Counted from the first letter of the stretch, positions 1-52,008 are shown. The stretch: DNA of 64,000 bases from a virus (IMGVR_UViG_3300035698_015309); one strand, 5' to 3'. Notes: generated by a model not told the origin, from the letters alone. Numbers and translations: made by a program.

Positions 1-256
1 AGGTTCTGGTGTGCCCAGATGTTCTGGGGGTGAACACATTGGTACTAACGATCACCCACGAGGCGTAAAACGAGTGCTGAGAGAGCGATTCCGTCTTCGA
101 CGGACCAGTTCCTTGGGATTCGGACGGAAGGAGCAACCGTCATCCGAGCCCTTACCGTTGGGCCGGAAGTTTACTACCGAGGTACTTGGGTCACCAAGAT
201 TCGGCACAGCTTCAAACTTGATGCCTGTTACATTCTAGCAGGTTTTAAGGAACGGT
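1..256 (+). mobile_element. Copy A of the tnpB 3'-end / omega-RNA scaffold + right-end (RE) module, truncated by the window edge. Ends ...AGGTTTTAAGGAACGGT at 256.
   Basis: Close nt similarity to tnpB 3' ends at 8940-9212 and 51530-51812 and to mini-elements at 18540-18802 and 35826-36100(-). ORF 11..238 is in the same frame as the TnpB C-terminus and stops at TAG inside the terminal hairpin CCTGTTACATTCTAGCAGG. Confidence 0.6.
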
Positions 257-1363: not shown

Positions 1364-1588
1364 TTATCCTCCAAAGTGGTGGGCGACCGAGAGCACAACG
1401 CCGATGGCGGCGAGGATGAACCCGCTTACCACGATCAGCATTGCGGTGAGGTGCTTGCCGAAGCCCTTCAGCACGTCGGCGCTGCTCATGTCCCGGTCGA
1501 TGCGGAAGTTCTTCTTGAAGTTCAGGACAGCGAAAACGAAACCGATAAACACGATGCTGAGGCCAGCAATGATCAGCGCAGTTCCCAT
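1364..1588 (-). CDS. small membrane protein (two TM helices)
   Basis: Internal Met start MGTALIIAGLSIVFIGF... hydrophobic segments. Tightly packed after the upstream gene. Confidence 0.4.
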   Translation of the reverse strand: MGTALIIAGLSIVFIGFVFAVLNFKKNFRIDRDMSSADVLKGFGKHLTAMLIVVSGFILAAIGVVLSVAHHFGG

Positions 1589-1598
1589 GACGTTCCTC

Positions 1599-1883
1599 CT
1601 AGAAGCGGACGGTGCAGCCCTTGGCCACCGCTCCGCAGCAAACGGTGAAATTGACCTTCTCGCCCGCAACGTTCATACCCGCCATCTTAAAGGCGGCGTC
1701 GTCCGACCCGGAGCAGCCTCCGAACCAGTGCGGGGAGAGCTGGTGTGTGCTGAGTACAGTCACGTCAGACATCCCCGAGGAGGTCGCCGCCTTGACGGCG
1801 TCATCCTCGCCCACCATGTAGCCGCAGCCACCCACAGCCAGCCCGAACGCCAGCAGACACAGGATCACCAAGATCTTCCTCAT
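1599..1883 (-). CDS. putative lipoprotein
   Basis: MRKILVILCLLAFGLAVGGCGY: signal peptide plus lipobox-like LAVGGC. Confidence 0.45.
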   Translation of the reverse strand: MRKILVILCLLAFGLAVGGCGYMVGEDDAVKAATSSGMSDVTVLSTHQLSPHWFGGCSGSDDAAFKMAGMNVAGEKVNFTVCCGAVAKGCTVRF

Positions 1884-2206: not shown

Positions 2207-2901
2207 CCCGTCCCCTTCATTTCCAGTGTGTCCCACTCCGGGGGCATTTCCGGGTCGTCCACACACCAGACAGTGTCAAAATCCACACTTTCAGGGGTGC
2301 CAGGACCGTGGTCAGTCGGGATTTGCCATCCCAACAGCAAACCGTACCCTGTCCGTTCTGGGTAACCCTCAGGCCAAGGACTGAAGAAGTGGGGGCCTGT
2401 GGTCTCTGTCATTTGCCAAATGGAACCATCGGACAGGCGCACCTTGCAGACAACCCCGACGTTGACGTGCCTCAGCACATCCAAGCTGGCACAGGGATAT
2501 TCCTGGCACAGCGTTTCATAGTCCACAGGGGTGATCTGACACTCTATGAGAGTCCCATCGGCACACTCAGACTCAGGCCAGCCTATCTCCCCCTCAGCGT
2601 AAGCGTCTTGATCGACCTCCCCCCCGTACCACGGAGGGGTGATGTCTGCGGGGTCGATCTCCATGTTGTGATTCCTACTCACACAACAGGGCTTACCCTT
2701 GAGCTGCTGGAAGAGATTGTTCCACCTTTCGATGTTTTCCTGCCGCTGGGTGGCCCAAACAGGGGCTTTGTCGGCGTCAGCCTTAGCGTCAGCCTTGGCC
2801 TTAGCGTCAGCTTCGGCCTGTTCCCTTTGCAGCAGCGCAATCTGCTCTTCACAGGTCTTGATCAGGGACTGACACTCTCCGATGGTCTGGGGAGCCCTCA
2901 C
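2203..2901 (-). CDS. hypothetical protein with AKADAKADA low-complexity/coiled-coil N-terminus (232 aa)
   Basis: ORF with GTGA start/stop overlap with the upstream bL12-like gene. Confidence 0.45.
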   Translation of the reverse strand: MRAPQTIGECQSLIKTCEEQIALLQREQAEADAKAKADAKADADKAPVWATQRQENIERWNNLFQQLKGKPCCVSRNHNMEIDPADITPPWYGGEVDQDAYAEGEIGWPESECADGTLIECQITPVDYETLCQEYPCASLDVLRHVNVGVVCKVRLSDGSIWQMTETTGPHFFSPWPEGYPERTGYGLLLGWQIPTDHGPGTPESVDFDTVWCVDDPEMPPEWDTLEMKGTG

Positions 2902-3221: not shown

Positions 3222-3263
3222 CGGGTACTCCTTCCCTTCGGGTCATTTGTCCCGTTACAAGGT

Positions 3264-3865: not shown

Positions 3866-5097
3866 TGGCCAAAAACAAACCACAAAGACACTCGTTAGTG
3901 GGGCAACGTTTTGGTAAACTCTTGGCCCTGGAGAGGATTCCCGAAGGGCAAACCAAATATCGCTGTCTATGTGACTGCGGGAAAGAAGTTACCGTTGCCA
4001 GAGGCAGCCTTCAGCAAGGCGTAACACGTAGTTGCGGCTGTCTTCGTTCCCCCGATCTCATAGGACAAAAATTCCATCGGTTAACAGTCCTGGCCCTAAC
4101 CCGAAAAATGAAACAGGGTCGGAAGTTGCCCCACTACATCTGTCGATGCGACTGCGGAAACGAGCACATCGTAGACAGAACCGACCTCACCAAAGGGCGA
4201 GTAAAAAGCTGTGGCTGCCTACGGGGGTCTCATTATGGTACTGCCCGACCCATATGCAAGGGAGATCATTTCGGACGGTTGACAGTAGTTGCACAGGCTG
4301 GGAAGGGGGAGCATCTTTGCAACTGCTCTTGCGGAGGAACAAAAATCGTCCCCTATGTCCGTTTGAGAGCAGGTTCCGTGCAAAGCTGTGGGTGCCTACG
4401 AGGTTCGCCCCTGCCTTGGGGACAGGCGGCGCAGAATGCTGTTTTTCTGAGGAATCGAAAAAACGCACAGCTAAGAGGGTTGTCCTTTACCTTGATCCGA
4501 AACGACACACTGCCTCTTTTCAAACAAAACTGCTACTACTGTGGTGCGCCCCCGACAATGATTTACAAACACCCCAGAGGAAACTGCATCTACAATGGAT
4601 TGGATCGGGTGGACAACACCGAGGGTTACACACCCTCAAACGTGGTGCCCTGCTGCTGGAAGTGCAATAGAGCCAAGAGAGAGGCAACTAGAGAAGACTT
4701 TCTGAACTGGGTGATGTTACTACATGACCCAATACCACCCATCTCTGCCTCAGGTCTGGCCCGTGTAGTGGTCACCCCCAAAGACAAACAAATTTACCGG
4801 AAATATCAAGGAGACGCTACTCGACGAGGCATCTCCTTTAGTCTTGATCTCACTCCTTTTGCAGCCCTGATTCAGTCCAACTGTGGGTACTGTGGAACAC
4901 CCCCTGCATCTCGGTACAGAAAACATGTTTACACAGGGATAGACCGAGTCGACAATGTTTTGGGCTATGCCGCAGATAACTGTGTGCCTGCCTGCATCAG
5001 GTGCAATCGGGCAAAGAACACCGATGAATTAGCTGACTTCCTGGCTTGGGCAAAACGGATCCAGACCTTTCAAACCACCGCAATTTCCACCAAATAG
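3866..5097 (+). CDS. HNH endonuclease-like protein: four N-terminal ~45-aa Cys-rich repeats (GxxFGxL..Y.C.CDCG...SCGCL) plus two C-terminal HNH motifs (DRVDN..GY...N..P.C..CNRAK)
   Basis: Start MAKNKPQRH after a GGGGAGG RBS. Tandem internal repeats visible in the translation. HNH signature occurs twice. Confidence 0.6.
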
Positions 5098-6617
5098 CGG
5101 AACACCTGAGCATCCTGGTTGAAGGTAACCAACTCGTCATGCACAAAGCCCCCCTGACTTTGTTTCCCGCAGGCAAAGATGAAGTCCTTAGTCGGCCACC
5201 CTGCCGGGCGATGCCTGTCCCAGCAAGCCGAGCCCCGTATGTCCGCTAACCCGAGGGCAACTTCCTGAAGGTACATGAAAGCATTGCGAGAGGCGTTGCC
5301 TGACCCGTAGTAGGCTCCTCTAGCGCTGGTGTAGTTCATCGACTTAAGTGCCCCATTCGTACCATCCGTAGGCGAACCCCCGACGAGCTTGTGTCCTGTG
5401 GCGTTCCAAGCGGGGGCGTGGTAAATGCCTCGTCCGAAGGCTGCTCCCGCCTTGTGGACACCCCGAGGAAGATTCTCAGGCATCAGGAGTCCCTGCTTGC
5501 TGATACCCAACAAGTTTTCGGTGCGTGTGCCATGCCACGCCATGATCCGTCCTGTTGCCCCCGGCTTTTTGGCGGTTTGAGTGGCATAGGTACTAAAGCG
5601 GCTGTCTGTACCGTTGCGTGTGAACTTGAACACCCTGGCAACCCGCAACACCGAACGGCCTCCTCGCCACCAGTTTTGATTCCGCTGTGACTGTGCCGTG
5701 TTGAAGATCTCCACGACTTTGCGGAAGTCCTGGGTGCTTGGTTCACAAATTTCAATGGAGCAGCCGAGGCCATCGTACCATATCTGTTCTTTGCCCGCTG
5801 TGCTGGACGTGTGTGCTGCAGCTTGAAACACCTCCTTGGTCAGGTGGGCATCCCGAAGAAGCTGGAGGAATTTGCGCTGTTCCTGCAACCGAGCATAGCT
5901 GGAGAGCACCACTAGATGCAGGTTGTCCTGCCCCCGCTGATCACGTCTGATCTCTCTCGGAACATTGGACATGAAACGGTTGGTCAGGTCAATGACCCCA
6001 TCTCGGGGCACACCCTTTACGAGGGGCAGCGTCTGTTCCCGGTTTCGGGAACTCTCCCGCCCGAACTCCTGTTCTAAGGTGGTCTCGATCTCATCGAGGA
6101 TGGAGCCTCCGATGTCTAATTGCCTATCTGATAAATTACCGATGGGGTTGTCCGCCGTTGCCCCGGCCTGAGCGGAAAGACCAGCCCGAACTACCCGACT
6201 CGTCTCGTTGTAGATGACGCTCAGAAGTTGCCCGACTTCGGGGTTAAGGGAAGAAGTTACGGGGGCGGGTGTTAAAGCGACGGGCACAGCCGTCCCATTG
6301 GCAGCGGCTTTATTCATCTCCTCTTGATCAGAACGAGTTTCCAGCCGGGTGTACCCTTTACGTTCCTTCCCCTGCACCTTTTTGGAAAGCAGCGACTGTG
6401 CCTGCCCCAAGCTGATGCCCCGTTTGCTGCCCTTGTCAGATCCGGCTTTGCCAGTCGGACCCCATCGACACTCGAAGTTCGCCATCCCCCCTCCGAGATC
6501 CTCCACCCACCCCTTCCAGAATTTGTTACTGCCGAGGGTCACACAGCCGGTCTTAGCCCCCGTCAAATCTGTGAAATTCAGGGTCACACTCTCAACAATT
6601 GTCCCGGCCATCGTCAA
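5070..6617 (-). CDS. WGR-domain + PARP-like ADP-ribosyltransferase catalytic domain protein (515 aa)
   Basis: N-terminal KFWKGWVE...FECRWGPTG (WGR). C-terminal AWHGTRTENLLGISKQGLLMP / GRGIYHA / YLQEVALG / HDELVTF align with the PARP1 H-G-S, GKGIYFA and YNEY catalytic blocks (H-Y-E). Minus-orientation motif plus hairpin upstream at 6645-6690. Confidence 0.8.
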   Translation of the reverse strand: MTMAGTIVESVTLNFTDLTGAKTGCVTLGSNKFWKGWVEDLGGGMANFECRWGPTGKAGSDKGSKRGISLGQAQSLLSKKVQGKERKGYTRLETRSDQEEMNKAAANGTAVPVALTPAPVTSSLNPEVGQLLSVIYNETSRVVRAGLSAQAGATADNPIGNLSDRQLDIGGSILDEIETTLEQEFGRESSRNREQTLPLVKGVPRDGVIDLTNRFMSNVPREIRRDQRGQDNLHLVVLSSYARLQEQRKFLQLLRDAHLTKEVFQAAAHTSSTAGKEQIWYDGLGCSIEICEPSTQDFRKVVEIFNTAQSQRNQNWWRGGRSVLRVARVFKFTRNGTDSRFSTYATQTAKKPGATGRIMAWHGTRTENLLGISKQGLLMPENLPRGVHKAGAAFGRGIYHAPAWNATGHKLVGGSPTDGTNGALKSMNYTSARGAYYGSGNASRNAFMYLQEVALGLADIRGSACWDRHRPAGWPTKDFIFACGKQSQGGFVHDELVTFNQDAQVFRYLVEIAVV

Positions 6618-7180: not shown

Positions 7181-7717
7181 CTAGTCCTTTTCGTTTTCCG
7201 GAAGAGCGTGAGCCGTGGCCCTACAAATGTCCCGCAGGATCCCTCGGAGCACTTTGGCTTTGTTGTCTGCTTGTAAGGCCCTGTTCAGGGCCTTTTCCTG
7301 TCGATCCTTTTCCTGTACCCTGTCTGCTGTGGCCTTTGCCCGAATTGCCCGCTTTTCCGCTGACCTTATAGCTTCCACCACTATTGTTAGCGCCACATCG
7401 AGTGGTTCAGAGGGAAAGGGAACAGCGCACTGGACATGCTCATAGTCCCAACCCTCGTACTCGTAACTTCCACGAGTAGTGAGCAACTCCAGAGCAGCCT
7501 CAGCGTCCCCTTCTGACGCCTTCTGCGCCAGTTCAAAATGTTTCCTTCTGGTCTCCCAAATCTTGAGGGACTGCCTGTCATTTTGCAGTGCTCTTAGGTA
7601 GGGGTTGTGCTGGGCGTCCACAGCGAATTCCAGAGAACGTGTTTGGAGGTCGGAACGGGTCTCCTCGGAAAGGCTCGAAGGCTCTGGCCCTGGGTCGGGG
7701 TCCTTGACAGTACCCAA
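7181..7717 (-). CDS. hypothetical protein. TTG start overlaps the LE palindrome of the adjacent tnpB element.
   Basis: 178-aa ORF. The 5' end coincides with GGGTCCTTGACAGTACCC, so the true start is uncertain. Confidence 0.35.
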   Translation of the reverse strand: MGTVKDPDPGPEPSSLSEETRSDLQTRSLEFAVDAQHNPYLRALQNDRQSLKIWETRRKHFELAQKASEGDAEAALELLTTRGSYEYEGWDYEHVQCAVPFPSEPLDVALTIVVEAIRSAEKRAIRAKATADRVQEKDRQEKALNRALQADNKAKVLRGILRDICRATAHALPENEKD

Positions 7718-9212
7718 TTTAGTTGCTAAAATCTAACTATTCCTGCTTGAAACAAGAAGCAGAGGTCAGTAAATGAAGTGTCGCATCTTCCGACTTCACA
7801 AGGACACCAACCGATCTAAGATCGATAAGTTGGAAGCCCTGCACAAAGCATATGTCAAGTACGTCCGTATCTGCGTACAGACGATGCTCAACCAGCAAAC
7901 CCTCAACCTCCCGAAAGCCGCCAAACAAACGTTCTTCCCACGGGCTACTGATCTTACGTCTCAAATCGAAAAGATCGCACGAGACCATGCAATTCAAATC
8001 GTAAGTGCTTGGGCCAAAGCTACTTACGCTCGTAAATTAAAGCCGACTATCACCAATCTCAAGCATGACGGTACCCTCACCGATCAGGACGCCAAAGCAC
8101 TCTGTGTCATCGGGTTGAAGTCCATCAGCAAGCCATGGGAGTTCATCACCCAAGACCATCTCGATGCTTATCACACCCTGTTGGACACCTACGGAGGCAA
8201 CAAGCCTATCGTAAGGGACAACCTACCCATGAGGTTGTCAGAAATGACGGCTCGATTGGAAGACACAACTAAAGCTCCTTTGGGGGGTTTTTGGCTGAGG
8301 GTGTCCTCGTTGGAAGCTCGGAAATCCGTCTGGTTGCCTCTTGTTGGGAATCCTTACATCCAGCAGGCTGATCAGGTTAACAAGGGGATATCAGCCCGTA
8401 AAACCAAGAAGGGGTTCTGGCGCTTTGAGGCAGTTAGCAAGGCTGAGTGGACCATTCCTGAAGCACAGGAAGATTGGCCTAAGTTGGGTGTGGATGTGGG
8501 CTTGAACGTGCTTGCAGCTACTTCAGATGGCGTGACCTATGGTGAACACGTCAAACCTAAGTTCGACAAGCTCTACGCTCGTGTCAGAAATCTCCGAGCA
8601 AACCGCCAACGACAGGACCTGAAGGACAACAGCCCAAAGTTGGATCACCTTGAAAGCAAGCTGAGTGGGTTGATCAAGACAGAAACGGGTCGTGTAGTAA
8701 ACACCCTTATCGTCCGCCATCCTGAGACAGTGTTCGTGGTCGAGGATCTCGACCTTCGAGGTTGCCGAGGCCAAAAGCGGTTTGCTTACAGGGCGTTACA
8801 GACCAACTTGGAGAGAAAAGCCCCAACAGAGAAGGTGAACCCGGCTTATACGTCGCAGGAGTGCCCCTCCTGCGGTTACATTCATCGAGGCAACCGAAGT
8901 TCAATAAGGTTCCATTGCCGCTCGTGCGGTAGGAAGGCTCACGCTGATTGGGTGGGAAGTTCTGGTGTGCTCAGACGTTCTGAAGACGAACACATCAAAG
9001 CTGGCGATCATCCAAGAGGTGTAAAACGAGTGCTAAGAGAGCGATTCCGTGTTAAACGGACCAGTTCCTTGGGATTCGGGCGGAAGGAGCAACCGTCATT
9101 CGAGCCCTTACCGTTGGGCCAGAGGCTTACTACCGTTGGATCAGAGTCATTTGGCAGCGGCACAGCTTCAAACTTGATGCCTGTTACATTCCAGCAGGTT
9201 TTAAGGAACGGT
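7697..9212 (+). mobile_element. tnpA-less tnpB element (IS607-derived): LE palindrome GGGTCCTTGACAGTACCC with TTGACA-17-TAAAAT, tnpB, RE ending GGAACGGT
   Basis: LE shared with mini-elements at 18449 and 36179(-). The sequence just upstream of the tnpB ATG matches the tnpA 3' end / tnpB junction of the IS607 copy at 50340-50376. RE identical to the other copies. Confidence 0.7.
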
Positions 9213-9281
9213 ACCAGTGTCCATCAGCGAACCGCCTGTTCACCACCTGGATCATTGCAGCCTGAGCCATCTCGTCCGTAG
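7773..9281 (+). CDS. tnpB: TnpB (RuvC-like RNA-guided nuclease). Stop codon lost (TAG->CAG in the RE hairpin) giving a ~23-aa read-through into the flank.
   Basis: RuvC-I LGVDVGLNV, RuvC-II VFVVEDLDL, YTSQECPSCG...CRSCG zinc finger, HAD RuvC-III. ~90% identical to the tnpB at 50373. Confidence 0.85.
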   Translation: MKCRIFRLHKDTNRSKIDKLEALHKAYVKYVRICVQTMLNQQTLNLPKAAKQTFFPRATDLTSQIEKIARDHAIQIVSAWAKATYARKLKPTITNLKHDGTLTDQDAKALCVIGLKSISKPWEFITQDHLDAYHTLLDTYGGNKPIVRDNLPMRLSEMTARLEDTTKAPLGGFWLRVSSLEARKSVWLPLVGNPYIQQADQVNKGISARKTKKGFWRFEAVSKAEWTIPEAQEDWPKLGVDVGLNVLAATSDGVTYGEHVKPKFDKLYARVRNLRANRQRQDLKDNSPKLDHLESKLSGLIKTETGRVVNTLIVRHPETVFVVEDLDLRGCRGQKRFAYRALQTNLERKAPTEKVNPAYTSQECPSCGYIHRGNRSSIRFHCRSCGRKAHADWVGSSGVLRRSEDEHIKAGDHPRGVKRVLRERFRVKRTSSLGFGRKEQPSFEPLPLGQRLTTVGSESFGSGTASNLMPVTFQQVLRNGTSVHQRTACSPPGSLQPEPSRP

Positions 9282-9371
9282 TGGCATCATAGTACAGGTC
9301 CCCGTGCTTTTCCCTGAAAACCAGTAGACGTCCGGTTACGGTCGATTTGTCGGTCATTGAGAACCTCCGTC

Positions 9372-9534
9372 GTGTGTACCGACCAGCTTATTAAACTACC
9401 ACTCAGTCGGTGGAATTGAACCACACCTTGGCTTTATCAGAGCCACGCTCGAACACGAGCTACGACCTTGTAGTAGGACTGGCTACCTACATCTTCGGTT
9501 TATCAGACCGCTGTTCTAGCCGGTCGGTACACAC
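9372..9534 (-). other. structured element bounded by a perfect 13-bp inverted repeat (GTGTGTACCGACC / GGTCGGTACACAC), immediately downstream of a minus-orientation promoter motif (9535-9565)
   Basis: Internal hairpins GCTCG-TGTT-CGAGC and GGCT-CTGATAA-AGCC, a T-loop-like GTGG-TTCAATT-CCAC, and a duplicated CTGATAA. Confidence 0.3.
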
Positions 9535-9982: not shown

Positions 9983-10004
9983 CTGTGTGTATAGGGGGGG
10001 ACAG

Positions 10005-12365
10005 ATGCCCAACTGGAACCGAATAGCCCACAGCGCCAGCAAAGTAACCGGCAAGGTCCAAACGATGGTGGAACATCTGTTGGGGGTTGAAGCGCTGACT
10101 CTCCGTTTCCTGGGCACCCACTTCCCACCCCAGCACGTCAGAGAGGTTTCTTTCGCCAGCCGGGGGCATGACATCGGCAAATACAGTCCCCTGTTCCCTG
10201 ATGTACTGAACGGGGTAGCCCGAGGGGTGCTGGATCATTCCTCACCTGGAGCCTGGGTTGCTTACGACCGAGGATCCCTCCTCGCTTCCCTGTTGATCGC
10301 CGGACACCATAGGGGTCTGCCGGATTTCTCACGCGTCTATTTGGGGTGTGTCCTACGCCCCTCTGCACAGCCGATGGGTAGCGGGACTCATCCTAACCCC
10401 GGTGTCTTCCATGTCTATCCGGGGCCAGCGAAAGACTTGTTGGTTCCCCTACGTGAGGATGGCATCGAGCTTCCTGAAATCAATATAAATGATGATGAGA
10501 CCTTCTTTTCTTTTTCTGAACTGGTGAAAGGCTGGCAGTTGTCCATTGCCAAGGGCTTGGATGTCCGAATGGCCTTTTCTGCGCTCGTTGACGCCGACTT
10601 CCTGGACACCGCCGAGCACTTCAAACCAGGGCGCACCTGTCCCAACCCCCCGTTGGACGCCGGTCTCGCCCTTGACGTTTTGAACAAATACATCGACGGC
10701 CTCAGTGCCAAGAGCAAACGCAGCGATGGTGCTTCCCCTGTGGTGCAACAGGAACGGGACCGTCTACGACAGGACTGCCTCAGAGCCGCCCAGGGGCCTC
10801 CAGGACGCATTTTGACCTGTACAGCCCCCACCGGTGTAGGCAAAACTCTAGCGCTGGTCTCGTTCGCCCTGGCGCACTGTCAGGCCCACCAACTTAAACG
10901 GGTGATCATCGCTGTACCCTACAAAAGCATCATTCAACAGACGGCGAAAACCCTGAAGGAGCTTTTCAAGGACCGGGCCTTCGGTCCCCACTTTGTGTTG
11001 GAGCATCACACGGACGCCACGCAGTGGGTCGAAGAGGAGGATCTCCAACAGGATGGTAGATCAAATGAGATTGACCGACGAGGGCTCACTGAAAACTGGG
11101 ATGCACCAATCATCCTCACCACGAACGTTCAACTATTGGAGTCCTTGTTTTCCAATCGGCCAGGGAGATGCCGGAAACTCCACAACATCCAGGACTGCGT
11201 GATCATTTTTGATGAGGGCCAGTCTTTGCCCAGCCACCTTATGCTCCCCACAATAGCAATGCTCGACCGACTCAGCCGTCAGTATCAGGTCACGGTGGTG
11301 TCTGCCACGGCCACCCAGCCTGCCTTCCAGAGCATCCTGCCTCAGGTAGAAACACTCGTGGGGGAACCGCTCCAGCCCTACGAGGAGATTGCCTCCGCCC
11401 CCGTAGCCTCGGCCAAGGCGATGGTCCGCAACAAGTTTCACTGGCCGCACAACGACGACGAGAGGTGGACCTGGGCGCAGTTGGCTGACCGGGTGTGTTC
11501 GGAAAGGATGTCAAACCTCGTGCTTCTCAACAGGAAGGACCATGCGGAAGCGGCCTGGAGGGAAATACAGACACGGTGGGGGGCGGATCGAGCTATCTAT
11601 TTGACTTCCAACCTGTGTCCAGCCCACCGGAAGGGGCTACTCAAAGAGGTGGTTCGTCGGTTGAAGACCGTTGGGGACTACTTCGTTCTGGCAGCTACTC
11701 CTTGTGTGAACTCAGGGACGGACTTCGACTTCAACAGGGGCTTCCCGGCCATGGGACCGTTGGATGGGACGGCACAAACCGCTGGGCGGGTAAACCGGGA
11801 GGGCTTGCGGGTACTAGGGGACATCTTCGTTTTCCGCCCGGACGTTGAATACAAGGACATGTTCCCGCATGACGAGTGGTTCCAGGCTGCTGCCCGGATC
11901 ACGGAGCGGTTCCTCCGGCGCTACGGACAACGTCTCGACCCGACGAACCCGGAAATCTTGACCCAGTACTATGAGGCCCTCTATCGGGAAGCAGGGCTAG
12001 ATCACCCGGCCACCAAAAAGATCATCGAGGCGTACCAGGAGGGTTCCTTCGAGAAGGTCAGTCGACGCTACCGGGTCATTCCCGACAAAGGGGTCCAGGT
12101 CGTCGTTCCCTACCTGGAAGGAGGGTGTGGGGAGCAGTACAGGAAACTCAACAAGGAGCGGCCCACCCGGAAAAGCTTCCGGATGTGGATGAACCGAGCG
12201 GCCCTGCTATCGGTCTCTGTTCTGTCACTGAAGAAGGATCACCCCCTCTGGCTCAGCCTTGACCCCGTCACGCTGAAAAGGAAGGACGGCTCCATCACCG
12301 AAACGGGCTGGTACATCTGCACTGACCCAAGAGCCTACCACCCGGAACTTGGGCTGGTGCAATGA
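10005..12365 (+). CDS. cas3: Cas3 (HD nuclease + SF2 helicase)
   Basis: HD motifs (HDIGKYSPLF, IAGHHRG). Walker A CTAPTGVGKT. DEAD-like IFDEGQS. Start ATG 10005 after a GGGGGGG RBS; the listed GTG at 9987 lies inside the promoter motif. Confidence 0.9.
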   Translation: MPNWNRIAHSASKVTGKVQTMVEHLLGVEALTLRFLGTHFPPQHVREVSFASRGHDIGKYSPLFPDVLNGVARGVLDHSSPGAWVAYDRGSLLASLLIAGHHRGLPDFSRVYLGCVLRPSAQPMGSGTHPNPGVFHVYPGPAKDLLVPLREDGIELPEININDDETFFSFSELVKGWQLSIAKGLDVRMAFSALVDADFLDTAEHFKPGRTCPNPPLDAGLALDVLNKYIDGLSAKSKRSDGASPVVQQERDRLRQDCLRAAQGPPGRILTCTAPTGVGKTLALVSFALAHCQAHQLKRVIIAVPYKSIIQQTAKTLKELFKDRAFGPHFVLEHHTDATQWVEEEDLQQDGRSNEIDRRGLTENWDAPIILTTNVQLLESLFSNRPGRCRKLHNIQDCVIIFDEGQSLPSHLMLPTIAMLDRLSRQYQVTVVSATATQPAFQSILPQVETLVGEPLQPYEEIASAPVASAKAMVRNKFHWPHNDDERWTWAQLADRVCSERMSNLVLLNRKDHAEAAWREIQTRWGADRAIYLTSNLCPAHRKGLLKEVVRRLKTVGDYFVLAATPCVNSGTDFDFNRGFPAMGPLDGTAQTAGRVNREGLRVLGDIFVFRPDVEYKDMFPHDEWFQAAARITERFLRRYGQRLDPTNPEILTQYYEALYREAGLDHPATKKIIEAYQEGSFEKVSRRYRVIPDKGVQVVVPYLEGGCGEQYRKLNKERPTRKSFRMWMNRAALLSVSVLSLKKDHPLWLSLDPVTLKRKDGSITETGWYICTDPRAYHPELGLVQ

Positions 12366-12459
12366 AAAAGTCTGCGGACAGGGGTTCCTTTTGCGACTTC
12401 ATTGAGTAGTAAGAAGTGCCGCCGAAGAAACTCGGCTGGATAAACAGACGGAGGGACAG

Positions 12460-13131
12460 ATGAAAAAAGGTATGCTGCACGGGTTGGAAGTGTGGGGGGA
12501 CAATGCCTGCTTCTCCCGCCCAGAGGTGACGGAGCGGACCACCTACCCCATCCCAACCCACTCAGCCTGTCGGGGGATCTTCGACGCTATCTACTGGAAA
12601 AGGTCCGCCAACTTCTACTGGCAGATCGTCGGGGTAGAGGTTGTGAACCCGATCCGGTACATGGGGATCATGCGGAACGAGATGAAAGACAAGGTCACCC
12701 GCCGCACTCTTCAGGTTGATCTTACAACCCAGAAGCACCGGACCCAAAAGCACACCAGGACTCTCCTGGACCCCCGGTACCGCATCTTCGCACGGGCGGT
12801 CTGCCGGAATCCTGATGGGAACACCAACGCCATCGACGCCCAATTCCGTCGTCGGGCGGAGAGGGGCCAATGTTTCCACCAGCCCTTCTTAGGTTGCAAG
12901 GAGTTTATGGCCAACTTCCAGCTTGTCCCGGTGGATGAGCATGATCCATCACAGGGACTCGCAGACCTTCAGGTGGACGTGGGGGTGATGGTCTACGACA
13001 CCTTCAATCTGCTGGTGCCCGATGGAGATCCTTCGGTCAGCGTGTTCCACGCACAGATCAAGGATGGGGCCGTGGCCTACCCGGAGTTCACTGATAGTGC
13101 CGCCGTGTTCCGGCCAGGGGGTGCAGCATGA
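12460..13131 (+). CDS. cas5: Cas5c (Cas5d) type I-C pre-crRNA endoribonuclease subunit
   Basis: 223 aa directly after cas3. GLEVWGDNACFSRPE...YWKR resembles Cas5d N-terminal blocks. ATGA overlap with cas8c. Confidence 0.8.
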   Translation: MKKGMLHGLEVWGDNACFSRPEVTERTTYPIPTHSACRGIFDAIYWKRSANFYWQIVGVEVVNPIRYMGIMRNEMKDKVTRRTLQVDLTTQKHRTQKHTRTLLDPRYRIFARAVCRNPDGNTNAIDAQFRRRAERGQCFHQPFLGCKEFMANFQLVPVDEHDPSQGLADLQVDVGVMVYDTFNLLVPDGDPSVSVFHAQIKDGAVAYPEFTDSAAVFRPGGAA

Positions 13132-14960
13132 GTGGTATCGGACAGAGCCTCCTCAACTATGCCGCACACTATATGCCCCAGCAGGCTCCGGTGGGGTACG
13201 AGTACCTGACCGTCGTGGAAACCGTAGTGTGCCTGACCCCGGACGGGAAGTACCAGGACTGTCACCTCAGGGACACCAAGACGGCCTCCCCGATCCTGAC
13301 ACCTCGGGTGCCCTCCAATTTGCTCAGGGCCACGCCCCCCAAGACTCACTTCTTCATCGGGTATGTCCCCCAGGTGTTCCCTCTCCTCGTGGCCGAACCG
13401 CACGACAACACCAAGAACGAGGTGAAGAGGGGCCTCTTCCTGGAGCAGATCAGAACGGTCATCAAGGAGGTTCCCTGCACTCGGAAGTACCTGACCCCCA
13501 TCCAGACCTTCCTGGAGGACGACGAGCAGGTCGCCCTTGTGGTTCAGGCTCTGACGAAGATGGAGGCAGACCTCAAGCGGGCTGTGATCTTCCAGACCGA
13601 GGGGAAGAAACTCGGCATCCCGTTCCAGGACAAGAAGGAATGGCGGGAGTGGTGGGCGACCTACCTTTCAGGAGCGGACAAAAAGAAGAAGACCAGCGAT
13701 AAGACGTTCCGCTGCGTCGTCACCGGGGACGAGATCACGAACCCCTGCCGCATCCATCCTGACGGCATTGCCTTCGGCACAACGAAGACGAAGCTGGTTG
13801 CCGCCAAGCAGACCTCCAGTCACCACTATGGCCAGGAGTCTGGCCTCGTTGCTCCGATGTCAGACCAGACGGCGAGCACAATGACCCAGGCTCTGGTTCA
13901 TGCCGCCCAAAACGCCGGGACGGCCTTTGGGGATCTTCGAATCCTTGTGTGGGCTTGTTCCAGGGGAGAAACCCTTACGGGGAAGGCTGGACTGCTGGCG
14001 GGCCAAGGGCCGGTTCTTGAAGGGGGCGAGTGGACCCAGATCCTGTCCGACGTTATGTCCGACCTCTTGAACTCGGGATTGACGGATGGGGAACTCCGGG
14101 GTGCCACCCGGAAGGTGAAGGAATACCTGGACACGGGCACCGGACCGGGAGGTGTCCTAGACATGGACTGCACCTTGGGCATCGTTTCTAGCAACGGTCC
14201 CCGGTTGGCTGTCCGGCACTGGGAGACTGGACCCCTGTCCGTCCTGTTCAAGAACATCTATCGATGGTATCAGGATATGACCATCAGCAACAACCGCAAT
14301 GACACGGGGATCGCCCGCCTTTCTGCACTCTGGCAGATCCTTTCCGCTGTCAACGGCCCAAGGGGCAAAGCTTCCGAACTGGAGCGTGAGATGCTCGTTC
14401 AGGTAGCCCTGCGGGGCCAGTCGGTCCCAATGAGCATTGTCAAAAAGGCCCTGGTGCAGTTCCGGTCACAGTTGCACCTGTCCATCAAACCGTCAACCAA
14501 CATGGGGATCGCTCCGGCATTGCCGGGAATCCTCAAAACCTTCATCAACAGGAGAGGGAACACCATGTGTGAAGCAGGATTGAACAAGGACCACCCGAGT
14601 GTGGCGTACCAGTGTGGGCGGTTGTTGTCCGTCCTGTCCGAACTCCAGAGCCTCGCCATCGGTGGGAGGAACCCCCCGATGGCCCTGGCTGCTCAGTTCT
14701 CGTCCGCAACGATGCAGAACCCGGCCCGTGCGCTGGCCCGGTTACTGCTCCGTTCCGAGAAGCACGTCAACAAGCTCGTCCGACAGGGAAAGGGATGGGC
14801 GGATCACAAACGGCAGGAGATCGTCGACCGCCTGCCCACAGACCTTCCGACCCGCCTCGGCATCGAGGATCAAGCTTTGTTTGCCATGGGGTTGCTCCAC
14901 CAGCGCTCGTCCTGGAAGAAGCAGGACAAGCCCGCAGGGACACCCCCGATTAAGGCATAG
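13128..14960 (+). CDS. cas8c: Cas8c (Csd1) large subunit
   Basis: 610 aa between cas5 and cas7 in canonical I-C order. Size typical. No closer motif recognised by eye. Confidence 0.75.
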   Translation: MSGIGQSLLNYAAHYMPQQAPVGYEYLTVVETVVCLTPDGKYQDCHLRDTKTASPILTPRVPSNLLRATPPKTHFFIGYVPQVFPLLVAEPHDNTKNEVKRGLFLEQIRTVIKEVPCTRKYLTPIQTFLEDDEQVALVVQALTKMEADLKRAVIFQTEGKKLGIPFQDKKEWREWWATYLSGADKKKKTSDKTFRCVVTGDEITNPCRIHPDGIAFGTTKTKLVAAKQTSSHHYGQESGLVAPMSDQTASTMTQALVHAAQNAGTAFGDLRILVWACSRGETLTGKAGLLAGQGPVLEGGEWTQILSDVMSDLLNSGLTDGELRGATRKVKEYLDTGTGPGGVLDMDCTLGIVSSNGPRLAVRHWETGPLSVLFKNIYRWYQDMTISNNRNDTGIARLSALWQILSAVNGPRGKASELEREMLVQVALRGQSVPMSIVKKALVQFRSQLHLSIKPSTNMGIAPALPGILKTFINRRGNTMCEAGLNKDHPSVAYQCGRLLSVLSELQSLAIGGRNPPMALAAQFSSATMQNPARALARLLLRSEKHVNKLVRQGKGWADHKRQEIVDRLPTDLPTRLGIEDQALFAMGLLHQRSSWKKQDKPAGTPPIKA

Positions 14961-15020
14961 TCTCTAATGGCCTAAGGTGGGCCTTAGAGTTGGATTAGGC
15001 ATAAAGTGAGGAGAAGTATC

Positions 15021-16031
15021 ATGAAGGATCTTTTGATGTGGCTGAAGAGTGGGACGGCGGCAATCGGATACAGGTTCGAGATCTTGTTCCTGTTCGATTG
15101 TCTGATGGGGAATCCCAACGGTGACCCCGACTTCGGCAACCTGCCCCGGACCATCCCGGACACGGGACACGGGTTCGTCACCGACGTCGCCATCAAGCGG
15201 CGTCTCCGCAACTACGTGAGTCTCCGCAAGGCAGGCAAGACCCCGTACCAGATTTTGCTGATGATGAACACCTGTACCAACAGGCTCATCGCCAAGGCCC
15301 ACGAGGACTCCCACGGGACCGTCCCGGCGAAGGCTACCAAGCAGGAGGAGCGGGCGGCGGGTGACCGGATGTGCCAGGACTATTGGGATGTCCGCACCTT
15401 CGGCGGTGTTCTCAACACAGGTGCCAAGGCGGGCCAGATTCGTGGACCCGTCCAGGTGGTGAGTGCCCGGTCCCTCGATCCGGTATCCATCCAGGAGATC
15501 ACCATCACCCGCATGACCGACACCAAGGGCTCCCCTGATCCCAAGAAGGTCAAGACCCCCAAGGATCAGGGTTTCTCCTCCGCCCAGTGGCAGGAGTATG
15601 AGGACGGGGCCGAGGCGGCGGCTCTCCGCACGATGGGAACCAAGGCGATCATCCCCTACGGTCTCTTCGCTGCCAACATCACGGTGAGCGCTTTCGTGGC
15701 GGAACAGACGGGCTTCTCGGCGGAGGATCTGGCCCTGATGATCGAGGGTCTGGAAAACATGTACGACCATGATCGGACCTCCAGCAAGGGTTTGATGACC
15801 TGTCGGGGCATCTACATCTTCAAGCACGTCGGGACGGCGGACGACCCCGAAGAGCGGGCACAGCAGGCCAAGCTCGGGTGCGCCCCGGCCCATAAGCTGC
15901 TGGACAACGGACGCATCGTGACTGTGGTCAAAAAGGACGGGGTAGAGGCCCCGATGTCCTTCGACGACTACACTGTCACCGTGGACGAGTCCAAGCTCCC
16001 GGAAGGTGTCGAGTTCCGGGCCATCCAGTAA
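15021..16031 (+). CDS. cas7: Cas7c (Csd2) backbone subunit
   Basis: MGNPNGDPDFGNLPR signature near the N-terminus. AGGAG RBS before ATG 15021. Last cas gene before the leader and array. Confidence 0.85.
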   Translation: MKDLLMWLKSGTAAIGYRFEILFLFDCLMGNPNGDPDFGNLPRTIPDTGHGFVTDVAIKRRLRNYVSLRKAGKTPYQILLMMNTCTNRLIAKAHEDSHGTVPAKATKQEERAAGDRMCQDYWDVRTFGGVLNTGAKAGQIRGPVQVVSARSLDPVSIQEITITRMTDTKGSPDPKKVKTPKDQGFSSAQWQEYEDGAEAAALRTMGTKAIIPYGLFAANITVSAFVAEQTGFSAEDLALMIEGLENMYDHDRTSSKGLMTCRGIYIFKHVGTADDPEERAQQAKLGCAPAHKLLDNGRIVTVVKKDGVEAPMSFDDYTVTVDESKLPEGVEFRAIQ

Positions 16032-18401: not shown

Positions 18402-18430
18402 AGCAGGGCAGACGCAATATAAAGAGTCGA

Positions 18431-18816
18431 GTCGTATCCTTTGACAAAGGGTACTTGACAGTGCCCTTCATACCTGCTAAAGTCTAACTGTTCCTGCTTG
18501 AAACAGGGAGCTGTTGCGGCAGGAAAGCTCATGCTGATTGGGTAGGAGGTTCTGGTGTGCCCAGATGTTCTGGGGACGAACGCATCAAAACTAACGATCA
18601 TCCGAGAGGCATAAAACGAGTGCTAAGAGAGCGATTCCGTGTTAAACGGACCAGTTCCTTGGGATTCGGACGGAAGGAGCAACCGTCATTCGAGCCCTTA
18701 CCGTTGGGCCGGAAGTTTACTACCGAGGTACTTGGGACACCAAGATTCGGCACAGCTTCAAACTTGATGCCTGTTACATTTTAGCAGGTTTTAAGGAACG
18801 GTATGTGGATTGAAAC
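18431..18816 (+). repeat. Solitary CRISPR repeat split by a mini-element: 5' hairpin part GTCGTATCCTTTGACAAAGGGTAC (18431-18454) and 3' handle TGTGGATTGAAAC (18804-18816)
   Basis: The two halves reconstruct a repeat variant with the same hairpin. Insertion is at the stem-loop/handle junction. Confidence 0.65.
18449..18802 (+). mobile_element. Miniature omega-RNA-only element, copy B: LE palindrome GGGTACTTGACAGTGCCC (TTGACA-17-TAAAGT) fused by internal deletion to the tnpB 3' end/RE
   Basis: LE matches 7697 and 36179(-). Junction CTTGAAACAGGG|AGCTGTTGCGGCAGG identical to copy C. RE identical to the tnpB copies. ORF 18557..18784 is the in-frame remnant. Confidence 0.7.
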
Positions 18817-35825: not shown

Positions 35826-36179
35826 ACCGTTCCTTAAAACCTGCTAAAATGTAACAGGCATCAAGTTTGAAGCTGTGCCGAATCTTGGTGACCCAAGTAC
35901 CTCGGTAGTAAACCTCCGGCCCAACGGTAAGGGCTCGATTGACGACCGCTCTAATCGCCCGAATCCTAAGGAACTGGTCCGTCGAAGACGGAATCGCTCT
36001 CTCAGCACTCGTTTTACGCCTCGTGGATGATCGCCAGCTTTGGTGTGTTCATTCCCAGAACATCTGGGCACACCAGAACCTCCTACCCAATCAGCATAAG
36101 CCTTCCTGCCACAACAGCTCCCTGTTTCAAGCAGGAATAGTTAGACTTTAGTAAGTTTGAGGGGTACTGTCAAGTACCC
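35826..36179 (-). mobile_element. Miniature omega-RNA-only element, copy C (minus strand): LE palindrome GGGTACTTGACAGTACCC at 36162-36179, RE at 35826
   Basis: Reverse complement is near-identical to copy B including the deletion junction. ORF 35844..36071(-) is the remnant frame. Confidence 0.7.
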
Positions 36180-38704: not shown

Positions 38705-38740
38705 GTCGCATCTTTTGGCAAAAGGTGCGTGGATTGAAAC
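38705..38740 (+). repeat. Solitary CRISPR repeat GTCGCATCTTTTGGCAAAAGGTGCGTGGATTGAAAC
   Basis: Identical 5' GTCGCATC and 3' GCGTGGATTGAAAC. Stem-loop sequence differs from the array repeat but stays self-complementary. No second repeat within 200 nt. Confidence 0.8.
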
Positions 38741-49310: not shown

Positions 49311-49460
49311 ATGGCCCACGAGTATGAATCCAAGCGAGCGACGGTCAAGGTCCTGCGTGCCGACAACTTCCTGGTTATCGTGACCGAAGACGGCGACATC
49401 TACTATTGCAAGCGCACGGGTACGCTCAAACACGTCGTCGGGGGCACCAAGGGTGCATGA
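49311..49460 (+). CDS. hypothetical 49-aa protein
   Basis: GAGTAGAC plus AGGAGG upstream. Confidence 0.3.
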   Translation: MAHEYESKRATVKVLRADNFLVIVTEDGDIYYCKRTGTLKHVVGGTKGA

Positions 49461-49538
49461 GCAGCAACCAAAAACCTACCTGACTCTCCTTTTTTCTCGG
49501 TGATCCTTTTATAACCTCCACGTTGGTATAGTGGAGGC

Positions 49539-49745
49539 ATGAAACGAACCATGATCGTCCGAGTGACCACAACCGAATTTGAAACGTCTGATGGACGGGT
49601 GATCCCACACCCCATTCCGTTTGATCCCGATGAGGTGCCTACCGTCGAAGAGTTCCAACAACAGTACAACAGGTGGCGCAAGGTCTTTGAAGATCAAGGA
49701 CTGGTGTTTCCCATACCTGATGCGGGAGATGAGGATGCTGACTGA
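49539..49745 (+). CDS. hypothetical small protein. 3' end overlaps the tnpA start and may be truncated by, or part of, the IS607 element.
   Basis: Hairpin CCTCCAC-N9-GTGGAGG embeds the RBS. Confidence 0.3.
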   Translation: MKRTMIVRVTTTEFETSDGRVIPHPIPFDPDEVPTVEEFQQQYNRWRKVFEDQGLVFPIPDAGDEDAD

Positions 49746-50376
49746 TCGTCTCCTAGCTCTCACCAAAGCAGCCGAAGCTCTTGGTGTTCACCGGAATACG
49801 CTTCGGGACTGGGCTGATGAAGACAAGATCCCTCACGTTCGCACCGTGGGTGGGCATCGCCGTTTCAAGCAATCAGACATTGACAGGTTGCTGGGCAATC
49901 TCCCAATCGATAAACAGCAAACGGAACGAGTTGTTATCTACTGCCGTGTGTCCAGCCACGATCAGAAAAAGTCAGGCGATCTTGAACGTCAGGCTGGACG
50001 GGTCACGATACACAGCATCACGAAGCAGTACAAGTTGGTCGAAGTGCTTCAAGACGTTGGGTCGGGCATGTCAGACACACGCCCAAAACTCCGAAAGTTG
50101 TTCAAACTGGTCAATGCCCATGAAATAGATAGGGTGGTTGTTGAACACAAAGACCGCCTGACTCGCTTCGGGTTCAATCTGGTCAATGCTTACTTCAACA
50201 GTCATGGTGTCACCATCGAGTGGACACAAGAAGTCCTTGGCAAAGGCTATCAGGAAGAGTTGGTCGAAGACATTTTGACGCTCATGTCGTCGTTCTCCGC
50301 TAAGATTTATGGCAAACGTTCGGCAGAACGACGTAAGGCCAAGAAAGCAGCAGAAGCGGCAGAGACAGTCAAATGA
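49720..50376 (+). CDS. tnpA: IS607 TnpA: MerR-like HTH fused to a serine-recombinase catalytic domain (start ATG 49720-49735)
   Basis: LTKAAEALGVHRNTLRDWADEDKIPHVRTVGGHRRF then VVIYCRVSSHDQ (catalytic Ser) ...RQ. Confidence 0.8.
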   Translation: MREMRMLTDRLLALTKAAEALGVHRNTLRDWADEDKIPHVRTVGGHRRFKQSDIDRLLGNLPIDKQQTERVVIYCRVSSHDQKKSGDLERQAGRVTIHSITKQYKLVEVLQDVGSGMSDTRPKLRKLFKLVNAHEIDRVVVEHKDRLTRFGFNLVNAYFNSHGVTIEWTQEVLGKGYQEELVEDILTLMSSFSAKIYGKRSAERRKAKKAAEAAETVK

Positions 50377-51797
50377 AATGTCGCATCTTCCGACTTCATA
50401 AAGATACCAATCAGTCCAAAATCGACAAGTTGGAAGTCCTACACAATGCCTACGTCAAGTACGTCCGTATCTGCGTACAAACGATGCTTGACCAGCGGGT
50501 CTATAATCTCCCGAAAGCCGCCAAACAAACGTTCTTCCCACGGGCCACCAACCTTACGTCTCAGATCGAAAAGAACGCACGAGACCATGCAATACAAATC
50601 GTGAGCGCTTGGGCGAAAGCTACTTATGCTCGTAAGTTGAAGCCAACCATTACCAACCTTAAGCATGACGGTACCCTTACCGATCAGGATGCCAAAGCAC
50701 TCTATGTCATCGGATTGAAGTCCATCAGTAAACCGTGGAAAGTTATTACTCAAGACCATCTCGACGCCTACCACACCCTGTTGGACACCTACGGAGGTAA
50801 TAAGCCTATCGTAAGAAACAACCTACCCATGAGGTTGTCGGAGATGACGGCTCGATTGGAAGATACATCGAAGGCCCCTCTCGGGGATTTCTGGCTGAGA
50901 GTATCCTCGTTAGAAGCTCGTAAGTCCGTCTGGTTACCCCTCGTTGGGAATCCTTACATCCAACAGGCTGATCAGGTCAGTAAAGGCATTTCGGTCCGCA
51001 AGACCAAGCGAGGCTTCTGGCGCTTTGAAGCTGTCAGCAAGGCCGAGTGGGCCGTTCCTGAAGCACAGGAGGGTTGGCCTAAGTTGGGCGTTGACGTTGG
51101 TCTGAACGTCCTTGCAGCTACCTCAGATGGAGTGACCTATGGTGAGCACGTCAAGCCCAAATTCGATAAGCTCTATGCTCGTGTCAGAAATCTCCGAGCA
51201 AATCGCCAACGACAGGATTTGAAAGACAACAGTCCAAGGTTAGATCACCTTGAGAGCAAGTTGAGTGGGTTGATCAAGACAGAAACGGGTCGTGTGGTGA
51301 ATACCCTCATCGCCCGTCATCCCGAGACGGTGTTCGTAGTCGAAGATCTTGATCTTCGAGGTTGCCGGGGTCAAAAGCGGTTCGCTTACAGGGCGTTACA
51401 GATCAACTTGGAAAGGAAGGCTCCAACAAAGAAAGTGAACCCTGCTTACACGTCGCAGGAGTGTCCTTCTTGTGGTTATGTTCATCGAGGAAACCGAAGT
51501 TCAATAAGGTTCCGTTGCCGCTGTTGTGGCAGGAAGGCTCACGCTGATTGGGTAGGAAGTGCTGGTGTGCTCAGACGTTCTGGGAACGAACACATTGGAA
51601 CTGGTGATCACCCACGAGGCGTAAAACGAGTGCTGAGAGAGCGATTCCGTCTTCGACGGACCAGTTCCTTGGGATTCGGGCGAAAAGAGCAACCGTCATT
51701 CGAGCCCTTACCGTTGGGCCGGAGGCTTACTACCGTTGGATCAGATTCGTCTGGCAGCGGCACAGCTTCAAACTTGATGCCTAGTAGATTCAAGTAG
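50373..51797 (+). CDS. tnpB: TnpB (RuvC + zinc finger), intact stop
   Basis: ~90% identical to 7773..9281. CPSCGYVHRGN...CRCCGRKAHADW. Confidence 0.85.
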   Translation: MKCRIFRLHKDTNQSKIDKLEVLHNAYVKYVRICVQTMLDQRVYNLPKAAKQTFFPRATNLTSQIEKNARDHAIQIVSAWAKATYARKLKPTITNLKHDGTLTDQDAKALYVIGLKSISKPWKVITQDHLDAYHTLLDTYGGNKPIVRNNLPMRLSEMTARLEDTSKAPLGDFWLRVSSLEARKSVWLPLVGNPYIQQADQVSKGISVRKTKRGFWRFEAVSKAEWAVPEAQEGWPKLGVDVGLNVLAATSDGVTYGEHVKPKFDKLYARVRNLRANRQRQDLKDNSPRLDHLESKLSGLIKTETGRVVNTLIARHPETVFVVEDLDLRGCRGQKRFAYRALQINLERKAPTKKVNPAYTSQECPSCGYVHRGNRSSIRFRCRCCGRKAHADWVGSAGVLRRSGNEHIGTGDHPRGVKRVLRERFRLRRTSSLGFGRKEQPSFEPLPLGRRLTTVGSDSSGSGTASNLMPSRFK

Positions 51798-52008
51798 GTT
51801 TTGAGGAACGGTTTACGCCACCCTCTCCATCTGTGTAAGAGACTTGGTGCAAACCCTGGACCCGAATGCTTTCATCCTGCATCACGACATCAAACACCCG
51901 CTGATCAGGGCTCTCCTGGCCAGCGGACTTTTCGAGGACACGGGTAAGGTCGCAAGCTACGGGTTCGTCTTTGATCGGCCCGTGTGGAAACTACTTAAGG
52001 AGGACTGA

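Follow-up and report, generated by a model that had tools for sequence, protein, structure and literature searches.

The IS607 element of Clostridium botulinum is the closest described point of comparison for the locus studied here: by experiment, GG is required and TGGG preferred, and TGGG is also the TAM of its TnpB (10.1101/2023.11.20.567912). In the IS200/IS605 family, both tnpB-only elements and protein-free minimal elements that carry an omega RNA have been documented (10.1101/2023.03.14.532601). Homing is a published role for TnpB, and the steps of the model proposed below follow this IS607/TnpB work (10.1101/2023.11.20.567912; 10.1101/2023.03.14.532601).

The window (the whole stretch of 64,000 nucleotides that we analysed) belongs to a metagenomic source genome of ~528 kb, and the related pieces L002 and L010 are catalogued as viral contigs. 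It holds one tnpB-only element (element a, 7698-9212), three mini-elements (b, c and d) and one full IS607-family copy (copy e), whose features are collected in Table 1. We consider 7698-9212 very probably to be non-autonomous and to have arisen by internal deletion from an insertion sequence of the IS607 family, with the family's own left end (LE) and with MITE-like relatives that retain only the guide RNA. Relatives were gathered by means of the invariant 23-mer of the right end (RE), of TnpA homologues, and of a TnpB scan of species genomes.

A tnpB-only element and its protein-free relatives

Read from the left, element a consists of GGGTCCTTGACAGTACCC, an inward-reading promoter, CTAACTATTCCTGCTTGAAACA, a match to the 3′ end of tnpA and a long TnpB ORF, and its right end closes with ...GGAACGGT. 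Between the two ends there is no tnpA except for ~7 terminal codons; the serine-recombinase TnpA with its N-terminal MerR-like HTH is not encoded, and because tnpA is missing from 7698-9212 we class the element as an IS607 derivative rather than an autonomous member. Homology to copy e begins at 7754 (equivalent to 50354), and the tnpA frame of 7755-7775, read directly from the sequence, gives E-A-E-V-S-K-stop, with A-A-E-T-V-K-stop at the same place in copy e. The earlier note was right that the stretch just before the tnpB ATG matches the tnpA 3′ end of the full IS607, and its proposal that tnpA was deleted is supported, as an internal deletion. An AGAGG Shine-Dalgarno sequence for tnpB lies inside the same remnant.

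The TNB domain of the element a TnpB was identified as PF07282 (Pfam, E=5.9e-13), and the protein is 91% identical to that of copy e (474 aa) and 73% identical to that of L016, a Myxococcota MAG. Among element a, copy e, L004 and L008, the dN/dS of tnpB is 0.07-0.13 at a dS of 0.55-0.68: purifying selection acts on this gene. The usual stop codon, which is TAG in the mini-elements and a TAG one codon later in copy e, reads CAG in element a, so that the ORF passes the end of the RE at 9212 by 22 sense codons plus a stop, as the earlier note had described; CAG also replaces TAG in L006 and, at another insertion site, in L004. This change is a loop substitution in the terminal hairpin of the RNA and gives TnpB a tail that depends on the insertion site. 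RNA-guided, TAM-dependent DNA cleavage by this TnpB is predicted, with GGG(T), read only from the junctions, as the putative TAM.

For the RNA partner, we aligned the scaffold region of 14 copies. The consensus fold covers columns 37-324 (~8941-9205 in element a), with 97.3% of cells paired, and it contains 37 compensatory pairs, compared with 15.1 +/- 2.4 in shuffles and 4-16 with slid partners. A scan of 7500-9400 against Rfam at E<=1 gave no family, RAGATH-18-type RNAs included. We infer that this covariation-supported structured RNA at the tnpB 3′ end and RE is the predicted omega RNA, and that the nucleotides immediately beyond it (9213..9232) would act as its guide.

The mini-elements are 355 bp long and comprise LE2 (our label for the type of left end found on element a), a ~290-nt omega RNA scaffold and the RE, with no protein gene; what they retain is exactly the covariation-supported scaffold. 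All of them have in common a second junction, ...TTGAAACAGG(G/A)(A/G)GC joined to TGTT..., by which the LE is connected to tnpB codon ~383. Their substitutions are distributed over the former codon positions without bias (61/51/58), whereas the coding copies have a third-position excess (92/91/136).

Mini-element b sits in a solitary type I-C CRISPR repeat, at the GGGT of that repeat: its flanks, GTCGTATCCTTTGACAAAGGG on the left and TATGTGGATTGAAAC on the right, when joined give 36 nt that are a variant of GTCGCATCCTCTAACAAAGGGTGCGTGGATTGAAAC, the CRISPR repeat nearby, with a compensated stem change. For this insertion the window itself thus supplies a reference for the empty site. GGGTGC, which the earlier note had reported in CRISPR repeat variants, does occur in the last repeats of the array. 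The guide of mini-element b is unlikely to target the array, since the two TAM-proximal positions read AT versus GC and the spacer part differs too. A likeness between LE2 and the type I-C repeat (TCTAAC...TTGAAAC) is absent from the LEs of L016 and L003 and probably reflects chance.

Table 1. Coordinates of the features discussed, counted from the first nucleotide of the window
Feature	Position	Strand	Remarks
Host-gene 3′ (C-terminal) fragment	7181..7700	-	joining 7700 to 9212
Element a (tnpB-only), LE2	7698..7754	+	GGGT junction 7698-7701; presumed GG crossover 7699-7700
Predicted sigma-70-type promoter, inward-reading	7704..7732	+	TTGACA 7704-7709, 17-nt spacer, TAAAAT 7727-7732
tnpA 3′ end remnant	7755..7775	+	~7 codons and TGA overlapping the tnpB ATG
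tnpB of element a	7773..9281	+	502 aa; RuvC/zinc-finger TNB domain
Predicted omega RNA scaffold	8941..9212	+	overlaps tnpB 3′ end and RE; ends ...GGTTTTAAGGAACGGT
Predicted omega RNA guide segment	9213..9232	+	flank sequence, different at every copy
Host-gene 5′ (N-terminal) fragment	9212..9357	-	own GGAGG ribosome-binding site
Mini-element b	18449..18802	+	LE2 with promoter, omega RNA scaffold, RE; no ORF
Mini-element c	35826..36179	-	architecture as in b
Mini-element d, right part	1..256	+	LE before window start; site complete in L010
Full IS607-family copy e	49451..51812	+	diverged LE, orfX, tnpA, tnpB, RE
Copy e LE	49451-~49538	+	starts GGGT at 49451, ~285 bp upstream of tnpA; strongly diverged
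Copy e orfX	49539-49745	+	conserved 68-aa ORF, preceded by GGAGG
Copy e tnpA	49735-50376	+	MerR-HTH/resolvase domains identified
Copy e tnpB	50373-51797	+	474 aa
Copy e RE	ends 51812	+	GGAACGGT

Junctions and proposed mobility

Every left junction reads R-GGGT at the boundary with the element (window a, b, c and e; L002/L009, L003, L004, L007, L008, L010, L012, L016, L017, L019, L021 and L022), and on the right all junctions have ...ACGGT, beyond which the sequence varies (more than 12 copies across both ends). The five right ends in the window (1-256, 9212, 18802, 35826 on the minus strand, and 51812) all finish in ...GGTTTTRAGGAACGGT, a terminus common to all copies, and then diverge. The earlier note had put forward the flanking GGGT(A/C)C as a target or TAM motif; the GGGT part is present at every LE junction, but the (A/C)C belongs to the element itself. 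The R-GGGT junction motif agrees with the GG core and the TGGG target/TAM established by experiment for the C. botulinum IS607 (10.1101/2023.11.20.567912), and the presence of GG(T) at both ends without duplication is what a serine recombinase crossing over at a GG core should leave.

Element a interrupts a gene: when 7700 is joined to 9212 in silico, a 221-aa minus-strand ORF is restored from two fragments. Empty sites in related genomes, suggested earlier as a check, were sought with the reconstituted 221-aa protein as query; none was found for element a in viral contigs, and a search of 5.8 billion proteins returned only an already-truncated 178-aa fragment and no intact homologue, so that the restored frame is the only support for the 7700/9212 junction.

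Element a is located upstream of a type I-C cas3-cas5d-csd1-cas7 cluster and the associated array, at a distance of 775 bp.

The tnpB-only copies with LE2 (window a, L004 and L008) are each found in different flanks and have in common the junction ...CTG(C/T)TTGAAACA(A/G)GAA(G/T)CAGAGGT(C/T)AGTAAATG. Because this LE-tnpA-tail-tnpB junction is the same in all three, one deletion would have made the tnpB-only form; because that form occupies at least three sites, it would have moved after tnpA was lost, implying that TnpA acted in trans. The ancestor would have had the layout LE, orfX, tnpA (serine recombinase), tnpB and RE, and the single deletion would have run from ~57 bp inside the LE through to the last ~7 tnpA codons, placing the element's LE promoter directly before tnpB (and, in the mini-elements, beside the omega RNA). 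A second deletion would then have given rise to the 355-bp mini-elements (window b and c, L002/L009 and L010 among those with LE2), in which promoter and omega RNA scaffold remain and for which both TnpA and TnpB would be needed in trans.

In the proposed cycle, the LE promoter would produce one transcript containing the tnpB mRNA, the omega RNA scaffold in its last ~290 nt and a guide from the right flank, namely the 16-20 nt that follow ...ACGGT. With TnpA provided in trans, the element would leave one site and enter another by a GG crossover within R-GGGT, without duplication, and the joint predicted for an excision bounded by LE2 and RE2 is ...GGGGTACC.... The site left empty, with GGG(T) beside the guide match, would be cleaved by TnpB and its omega RNA, and recombination would copy the element back. 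That TnpA excises and integrates the LE2 elements is a reading suggested by the same deletion form at three sites. The source genome carries at least two IS607 tnpA genes, and no LE2-type end was seen with either. The TnpA of copy e is at most a possible mover, since the LE of that copy shows no more than marginal similarity to LE2 (34/57, z=2.4), and this counts against our reading. Among viral contigs, the search for relatives of TnpA yielded just a 32% match, of no use here, and the closest TnpA relative, P0002, is 73% identical (compared by gene layout).

Since copies a, b and c have diverged by 10-19%, and since insertion a is also present in L006 and insertion d in L010 at the same sites, the LE2 copies look old and may now be immobile. 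These observations favour an alternative in which the LE2 elements no longer transpose and are fossils or domesticated modules, the TnpB and guide-RNA genes being kept for a function of the host genome's own (homing between co-infecting genomes or cutting of competitors, for example) rather than for maintenance of the transposon. The purifying selection on tnpB points the same way, as do the retention of both promoter and RNA structure in the mini-elements and the lack, within the window, of a cognate LE2-type tnpA. We nevertheless find this alternative unlikely: the predicted guides are the sequences beside each insertion, as homing predicts, the deletion form reached its several sites after tnpA was lost, two IS607 tnpA genes are present in the same ~528-kb genome, and element a disrupts a gene. 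The non-autonomous transposon derivative remains our preferred reading.

A bolder extension, which we put forward as a speculation with rather little chance of being correct, is that the LE2 promoter became near-consensus in those lineages that lack tnpA, and that one TnpB gene together with several guide-RNA genes, each transcribed independently, forms a distributed multi-guide device for homing (a gene drive) or for cutting competitors between co-infecting relatives, in a ~528-kb, CRISPR-bearing and probably viral genome. If so, the preference for R-GGGT would also predispose type I-C CRISPR repeats to insertion.

The left end and its relatives

An inward-facing promoter inside the left end is normal for insertion sequences. 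The one in LE2, which the earlier note had picked out as consensus-like, matches the consensus at 11/12 positions and is TG-extended (TG before the -10). Across seven LE2 copies the -35 hexamer never varies and the -10 does so at one of its six positions (position 5 is A or G), whereas 9/17 positions of the spacer vary; conserved hexamers with a variable spacer fit selection for promoter function. The full element of L016 has TAAAAG as its -10, which is weaker.

The 18-bp palindrome claimed for the left end, GGGTCCTTGACAGTACCC, is present at 7698-7715, with two more copies at 18449 (+) and 36179 (-), where 0.13 would be expected by chance, but it is imperfect in element a: 5/6 positions of its 6-bp arms pair there, and in window copy c, L008 and L010 they pair throughout. 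The palindrome could in principle be the functional DNA site itself, either an operator for the MerR-like HTH of TnpA or a recombinase dimer site, with the promoter-like hexamers a by-product, and it is in favour of this that all LE2 copies, and L016 as well, keep five of the six pairs (GGGT.C / G.ACCC). We think this improbable, as the remaining pair is neither maintained nor compensated, most of the left arm is the GGGT that the junction requires, the centre is TTGACA rather than the GG crossover, the palindrome is missing from the LEs of other full-length relatives, and the pattern of kept hexamers and varying spacer is that of a promoter. Comparison of the LE2 copies, L016 and the other LE variants gave no evidence of a separate role for the palindrome.

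LE2 was correctly described as common to element a and the mini-elements (CTAACTATTCCTGCTTGAAACA is present in element a and in two of them), but the analysis does not uphold its description as novel, nor the idea that it was newly acquired after the loss of tnpA. In L016, GGGTTCTTGACAGCACCC...CTACTAAAAGTC...TCCTGC lies directly upstream of a complete orfX-tnpA-tnpB element that ends in ...GGAACGGT; this element runs from GCGCGA / GGGTTCTTGACAGCACCCATCTGACCTACTAAAAGTCGATTGCTCCTGCC... through orfX, tnpA and tnpB to ...GGTTTTGAGGAACGGT / TAAGCC (slashes mark the junctions). Its LE aligns with LE2 at 44/57 positions (77%; z=10.7 against shuffles), so that, at the level of the family, an LE of this type is found upstream of tnpA, the very observation that the earlier note had named as refuting its proposal. 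L016, whose TnpA is 57% identical to that of the window, is the sole tnpA-bearing carrier of an LE2-type end that we found, and no full-length copy with LE2 at >90% identity turned up among the relatives collected. The LE of L003 is also similar to LE2 (40/57, z=7.4); behind it come a small RHH-like ORF and then tnpB.

The left starts of the other full-length relatives are GGGTTCCTGAGCAGTAAC (L022), GGGTTCCTGAACTGTACC (L019) and GGGTGCATGAGCAGCAACC (copy e), all of which begin GGGT(T/G)C(C/A)TGA(G/A)C(A/T)GNA(A/C)C. Inspected by eye, they resemble the LE2 terminus GGGTACTTGACAGTACCC with variations, and a terminal motif GGGT(N)C(T/C)TGA..CAG..A(A/C)C can be made out in L016, L019, L022 and copy e; the 57-nt alignment to LE2 is weak (z=3.3 for L019, z=-0.1 for L022 and, as given above, 2.4 for copy e). 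Each LE also holds an inverted copy of the subterminal ~20 nt of its own RE. The subterminal motif of LE2 is TGCTAAAATCTAAC, and its inverted repeat is found in the RE: LE2b, CCTTCATACCTGCTAAAGTCTAAC, can be compared with the reverse complement of RE2, CCTTAAAACCTGCTAAAATGTAAC, and, separately, the copy e LE, AAAACCTACCTGACTCTCCT, with the reverse complement of its own RE, AAAACCTACTTGAATCTACT. Because each mirrors the motif of its own RE, both are cognate ends that co-evolve with their REs and not foreign sequence, and on these sequence comparisons we read LE2 as a left end that is ordinary for one branch of the IS607 clade.

That LE2 is absent upstream of the full IS607 is true in the literal sense that 48.9-49.8 kb contains only 8-11-nt chance matches, but a diverged end of the same layout is present at 49451; it was missed at 49.5-49.7 kb because that stretch lies inside orfX, the LE being further upstream. 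A small ORF overlapping the start of tnpA by ~11 nt was found in every full-length relative checked. The left boundary of copy e is based on the GGGT junction, on positional alignment and on the inverted LE/RE motif; its excision in silico did not clearly rebuild a known gene.

The LE types are interleaved on the scale of TnpB similarity (element a and copy e have different LEs at 91% TnpB identity, element a and L016 the same LE type at 73%), which suggests that LE-tnpA and tnpB-RE modules have been exchanged between elements. Replacement of the LE of element a, after the loss of tnpA, by a new and unrelated one carrying palindrome and promoter, yielding a chimeric element of a new type, would agree with the lack of a significant LE2 match upstream of the full IS607 in the window and with a likeness to the copy e LE that is no more than marginal, but we regard it as highly improbable given the LE2-type end that precedes the full orfX-tnpA-tnpB set in L016, the terminal motif visible by eye in the other full-length relatives (the alignment is not significant for L022) and the inverted copy of its own RE motif within LE2.

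Comparison with known systems

Both tnpB-only and guide-RNA-only forms are categories already described for TnpB transposons; element a is real but ordinary, and it does not challenge current understanding. Its value is mainly one of annotation. An IS607/TnpB clade that had not been characterised, present in a Myxococcota MAG and in a very large genome that is probably viral, now has precise element ends, R-GGGT as its candidate TAM and an omega RNA scaffold; tnpB-only and omega-RNA-only non-autonomous elements are seen to have counterparts in the IS607 lineage; and the supposedly novel left end proves to be the one usual for the family. One might also try the ~474-aa TnpB, given its defined scaffold and G-rich candidate TAM, as a reagent for editing.

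With the C. botulinum IS607 (Zedaveinyte et al., 10.1101/2023.11.20.567912), this clade has in common a TnpA composed of MerR-HTH and resolvase domains and a tnpB that overlaps the tnpA stop (as in copy e and L016), a GG at each junction, a target/TAM rich in G (R-GGGT here, TGGG in C. botulinum), the geometry of scarless excision, a guide RNA encoded at the RE, and short ends with repeated motifs (40-60 bp were sufficient there). Unlike it, the clade of the window is without a group I intron, has a conserved 62-74-aa ORF upstream of tnpA and always has T after the GG at both ends, and element a is without tnpA.

The tnpB-only elements of the IS1341 group of IS200/IS605, as in G. stearothermophilus (Meers et al., 10.1101/2023.03.14.532601), resemble element a in having tnpB and an overlapping omega RNA between conserved LE and RE with no transposase, in their presumed mobilisation in trans, and in being far commoner than autonomous copies. 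Those elements depend on a Y1 (HUH) transposase, hairpin ends and single-stranded DNA, whereas element a is of serine-recombinase IS607 descent, with the tail of tnpA still visible. The PATE/MITE-like, omega-RNA-only elements described by the same authors are the counterparts of the mini-elements, with both ends, no ORF, an intact omega RNA scaffold and a need for TnpB and TnpA in trans; the mini-elements of the window differ from them in belonging to the IS607 lineage and in carrying a near-consensus LE promoter directly upstream of the scaffold.

Insertion of a mini-element into a CRISPR repeat

The ORF-less mini-element b, which comprises a promoter-bearing LE2 (the left end of the tnpB-only element), an omega RNA scaffold and a right end, has inserted into a solitary type I-C CRISPR repeat ~1.1 kb beyond the type I-C array. 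The repeat variant that it splits carries a compensated stem change (C5T/G23A), and the 3′ handle of the interrupted repeat now lies downstream of the mini-element's promoter and scaffold, which read into it. The two further solitary repeats could each be a single-repeat unit or what is left of a decayed mini-array. No cas1, cas2 or cas4 was seen between the cas cluster and the array in the window.

LE2 itself resembles the I-C repeat in one respect: it contains TCTAAC...TTGAAAC (7733-7753), and both motifs also occur in the repeat, where TCTAAC forms the loop and ATTGAAAC the 3′ end. Because these motifs are missing from the left ends of related elements at L016 (a complete element in a Myxococcota MAG) and L003 (an LE2-like left end), we judge from the sequences that the sharing is probably due to chance.

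Coordinates of features in the window and at related loci
Locus	Position	Strand	Feature
Window	5070-6617	-	515-aa protein: WGR, PARP regulatory and PARP catalytic domains
Window	9987-16031		Compact type I-C cluster, cas3-cas5d-csd1(cas8c)-cas7, adjoining array
Window	16228-17418		Type I-C array
Window	18430-18452 + 18802-18816		Solitary I-C repeat holding mini-element b, inserted at its GGGT
Window	38705-38740; 63525-63557		Further solitary I-C repeats (n=2), distant from array
Window	23703-56331		~43-nt repeats, 9 direct copies
Window	near 3252, 6637, 20333		~43-nt repeats, inverted copies
Window	49539-49745		orfX
L012	3949-4116		orfX
L016	~2213-2361		orfX
L019	2323-2511		orfX
L021	2290-2514		orfX
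L022	2299-2511		orfX
L003	~1560-1715	-	Small ribbon-helix-helix-like ORF between LE and tnpB (tnpB-only relative)
L017	~1090-1265		As for L003
L012	4001-6895		Second IS607-type element of the ~528-kb genome
L021	3142-4104		N6/N4 DNA methyltransferase gene in tnpB's place, orfX-tnpA element

orfX and additional small ORFs

All full-length relatives examined from the IS607 clade of the window's complete copy (copy e) carry orfX, a conserved ORF of 62-74 aa that lies 5′ of tnpA, overlaps its start by ~11 nt and has no Pfam match; at L007, a shortened version is fused ahead of tnpB. Perhaps it serves the transposon as an accessory or regulatory gene. The ribbon-helix-helix-like ORF of L003 has a separate promoter of its own (TTGACA-17-CATAAT). 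Between its tnpA and tnpB, the L012 element holds one passenger ORF of 171 aa and another of 71 aa, neither with a Pfam match.

Genomic setting

The dispersed ~43-nt repeats, laid out as GGGATCATC...GAGTAG...GTGAGGGG and often followed by CAAATGACCCCTG, are unrelated to the IS607 elements. The source contig spans 528 kb, its small ORFs are mostly unannotatable, and it probably derives from a huge phage.
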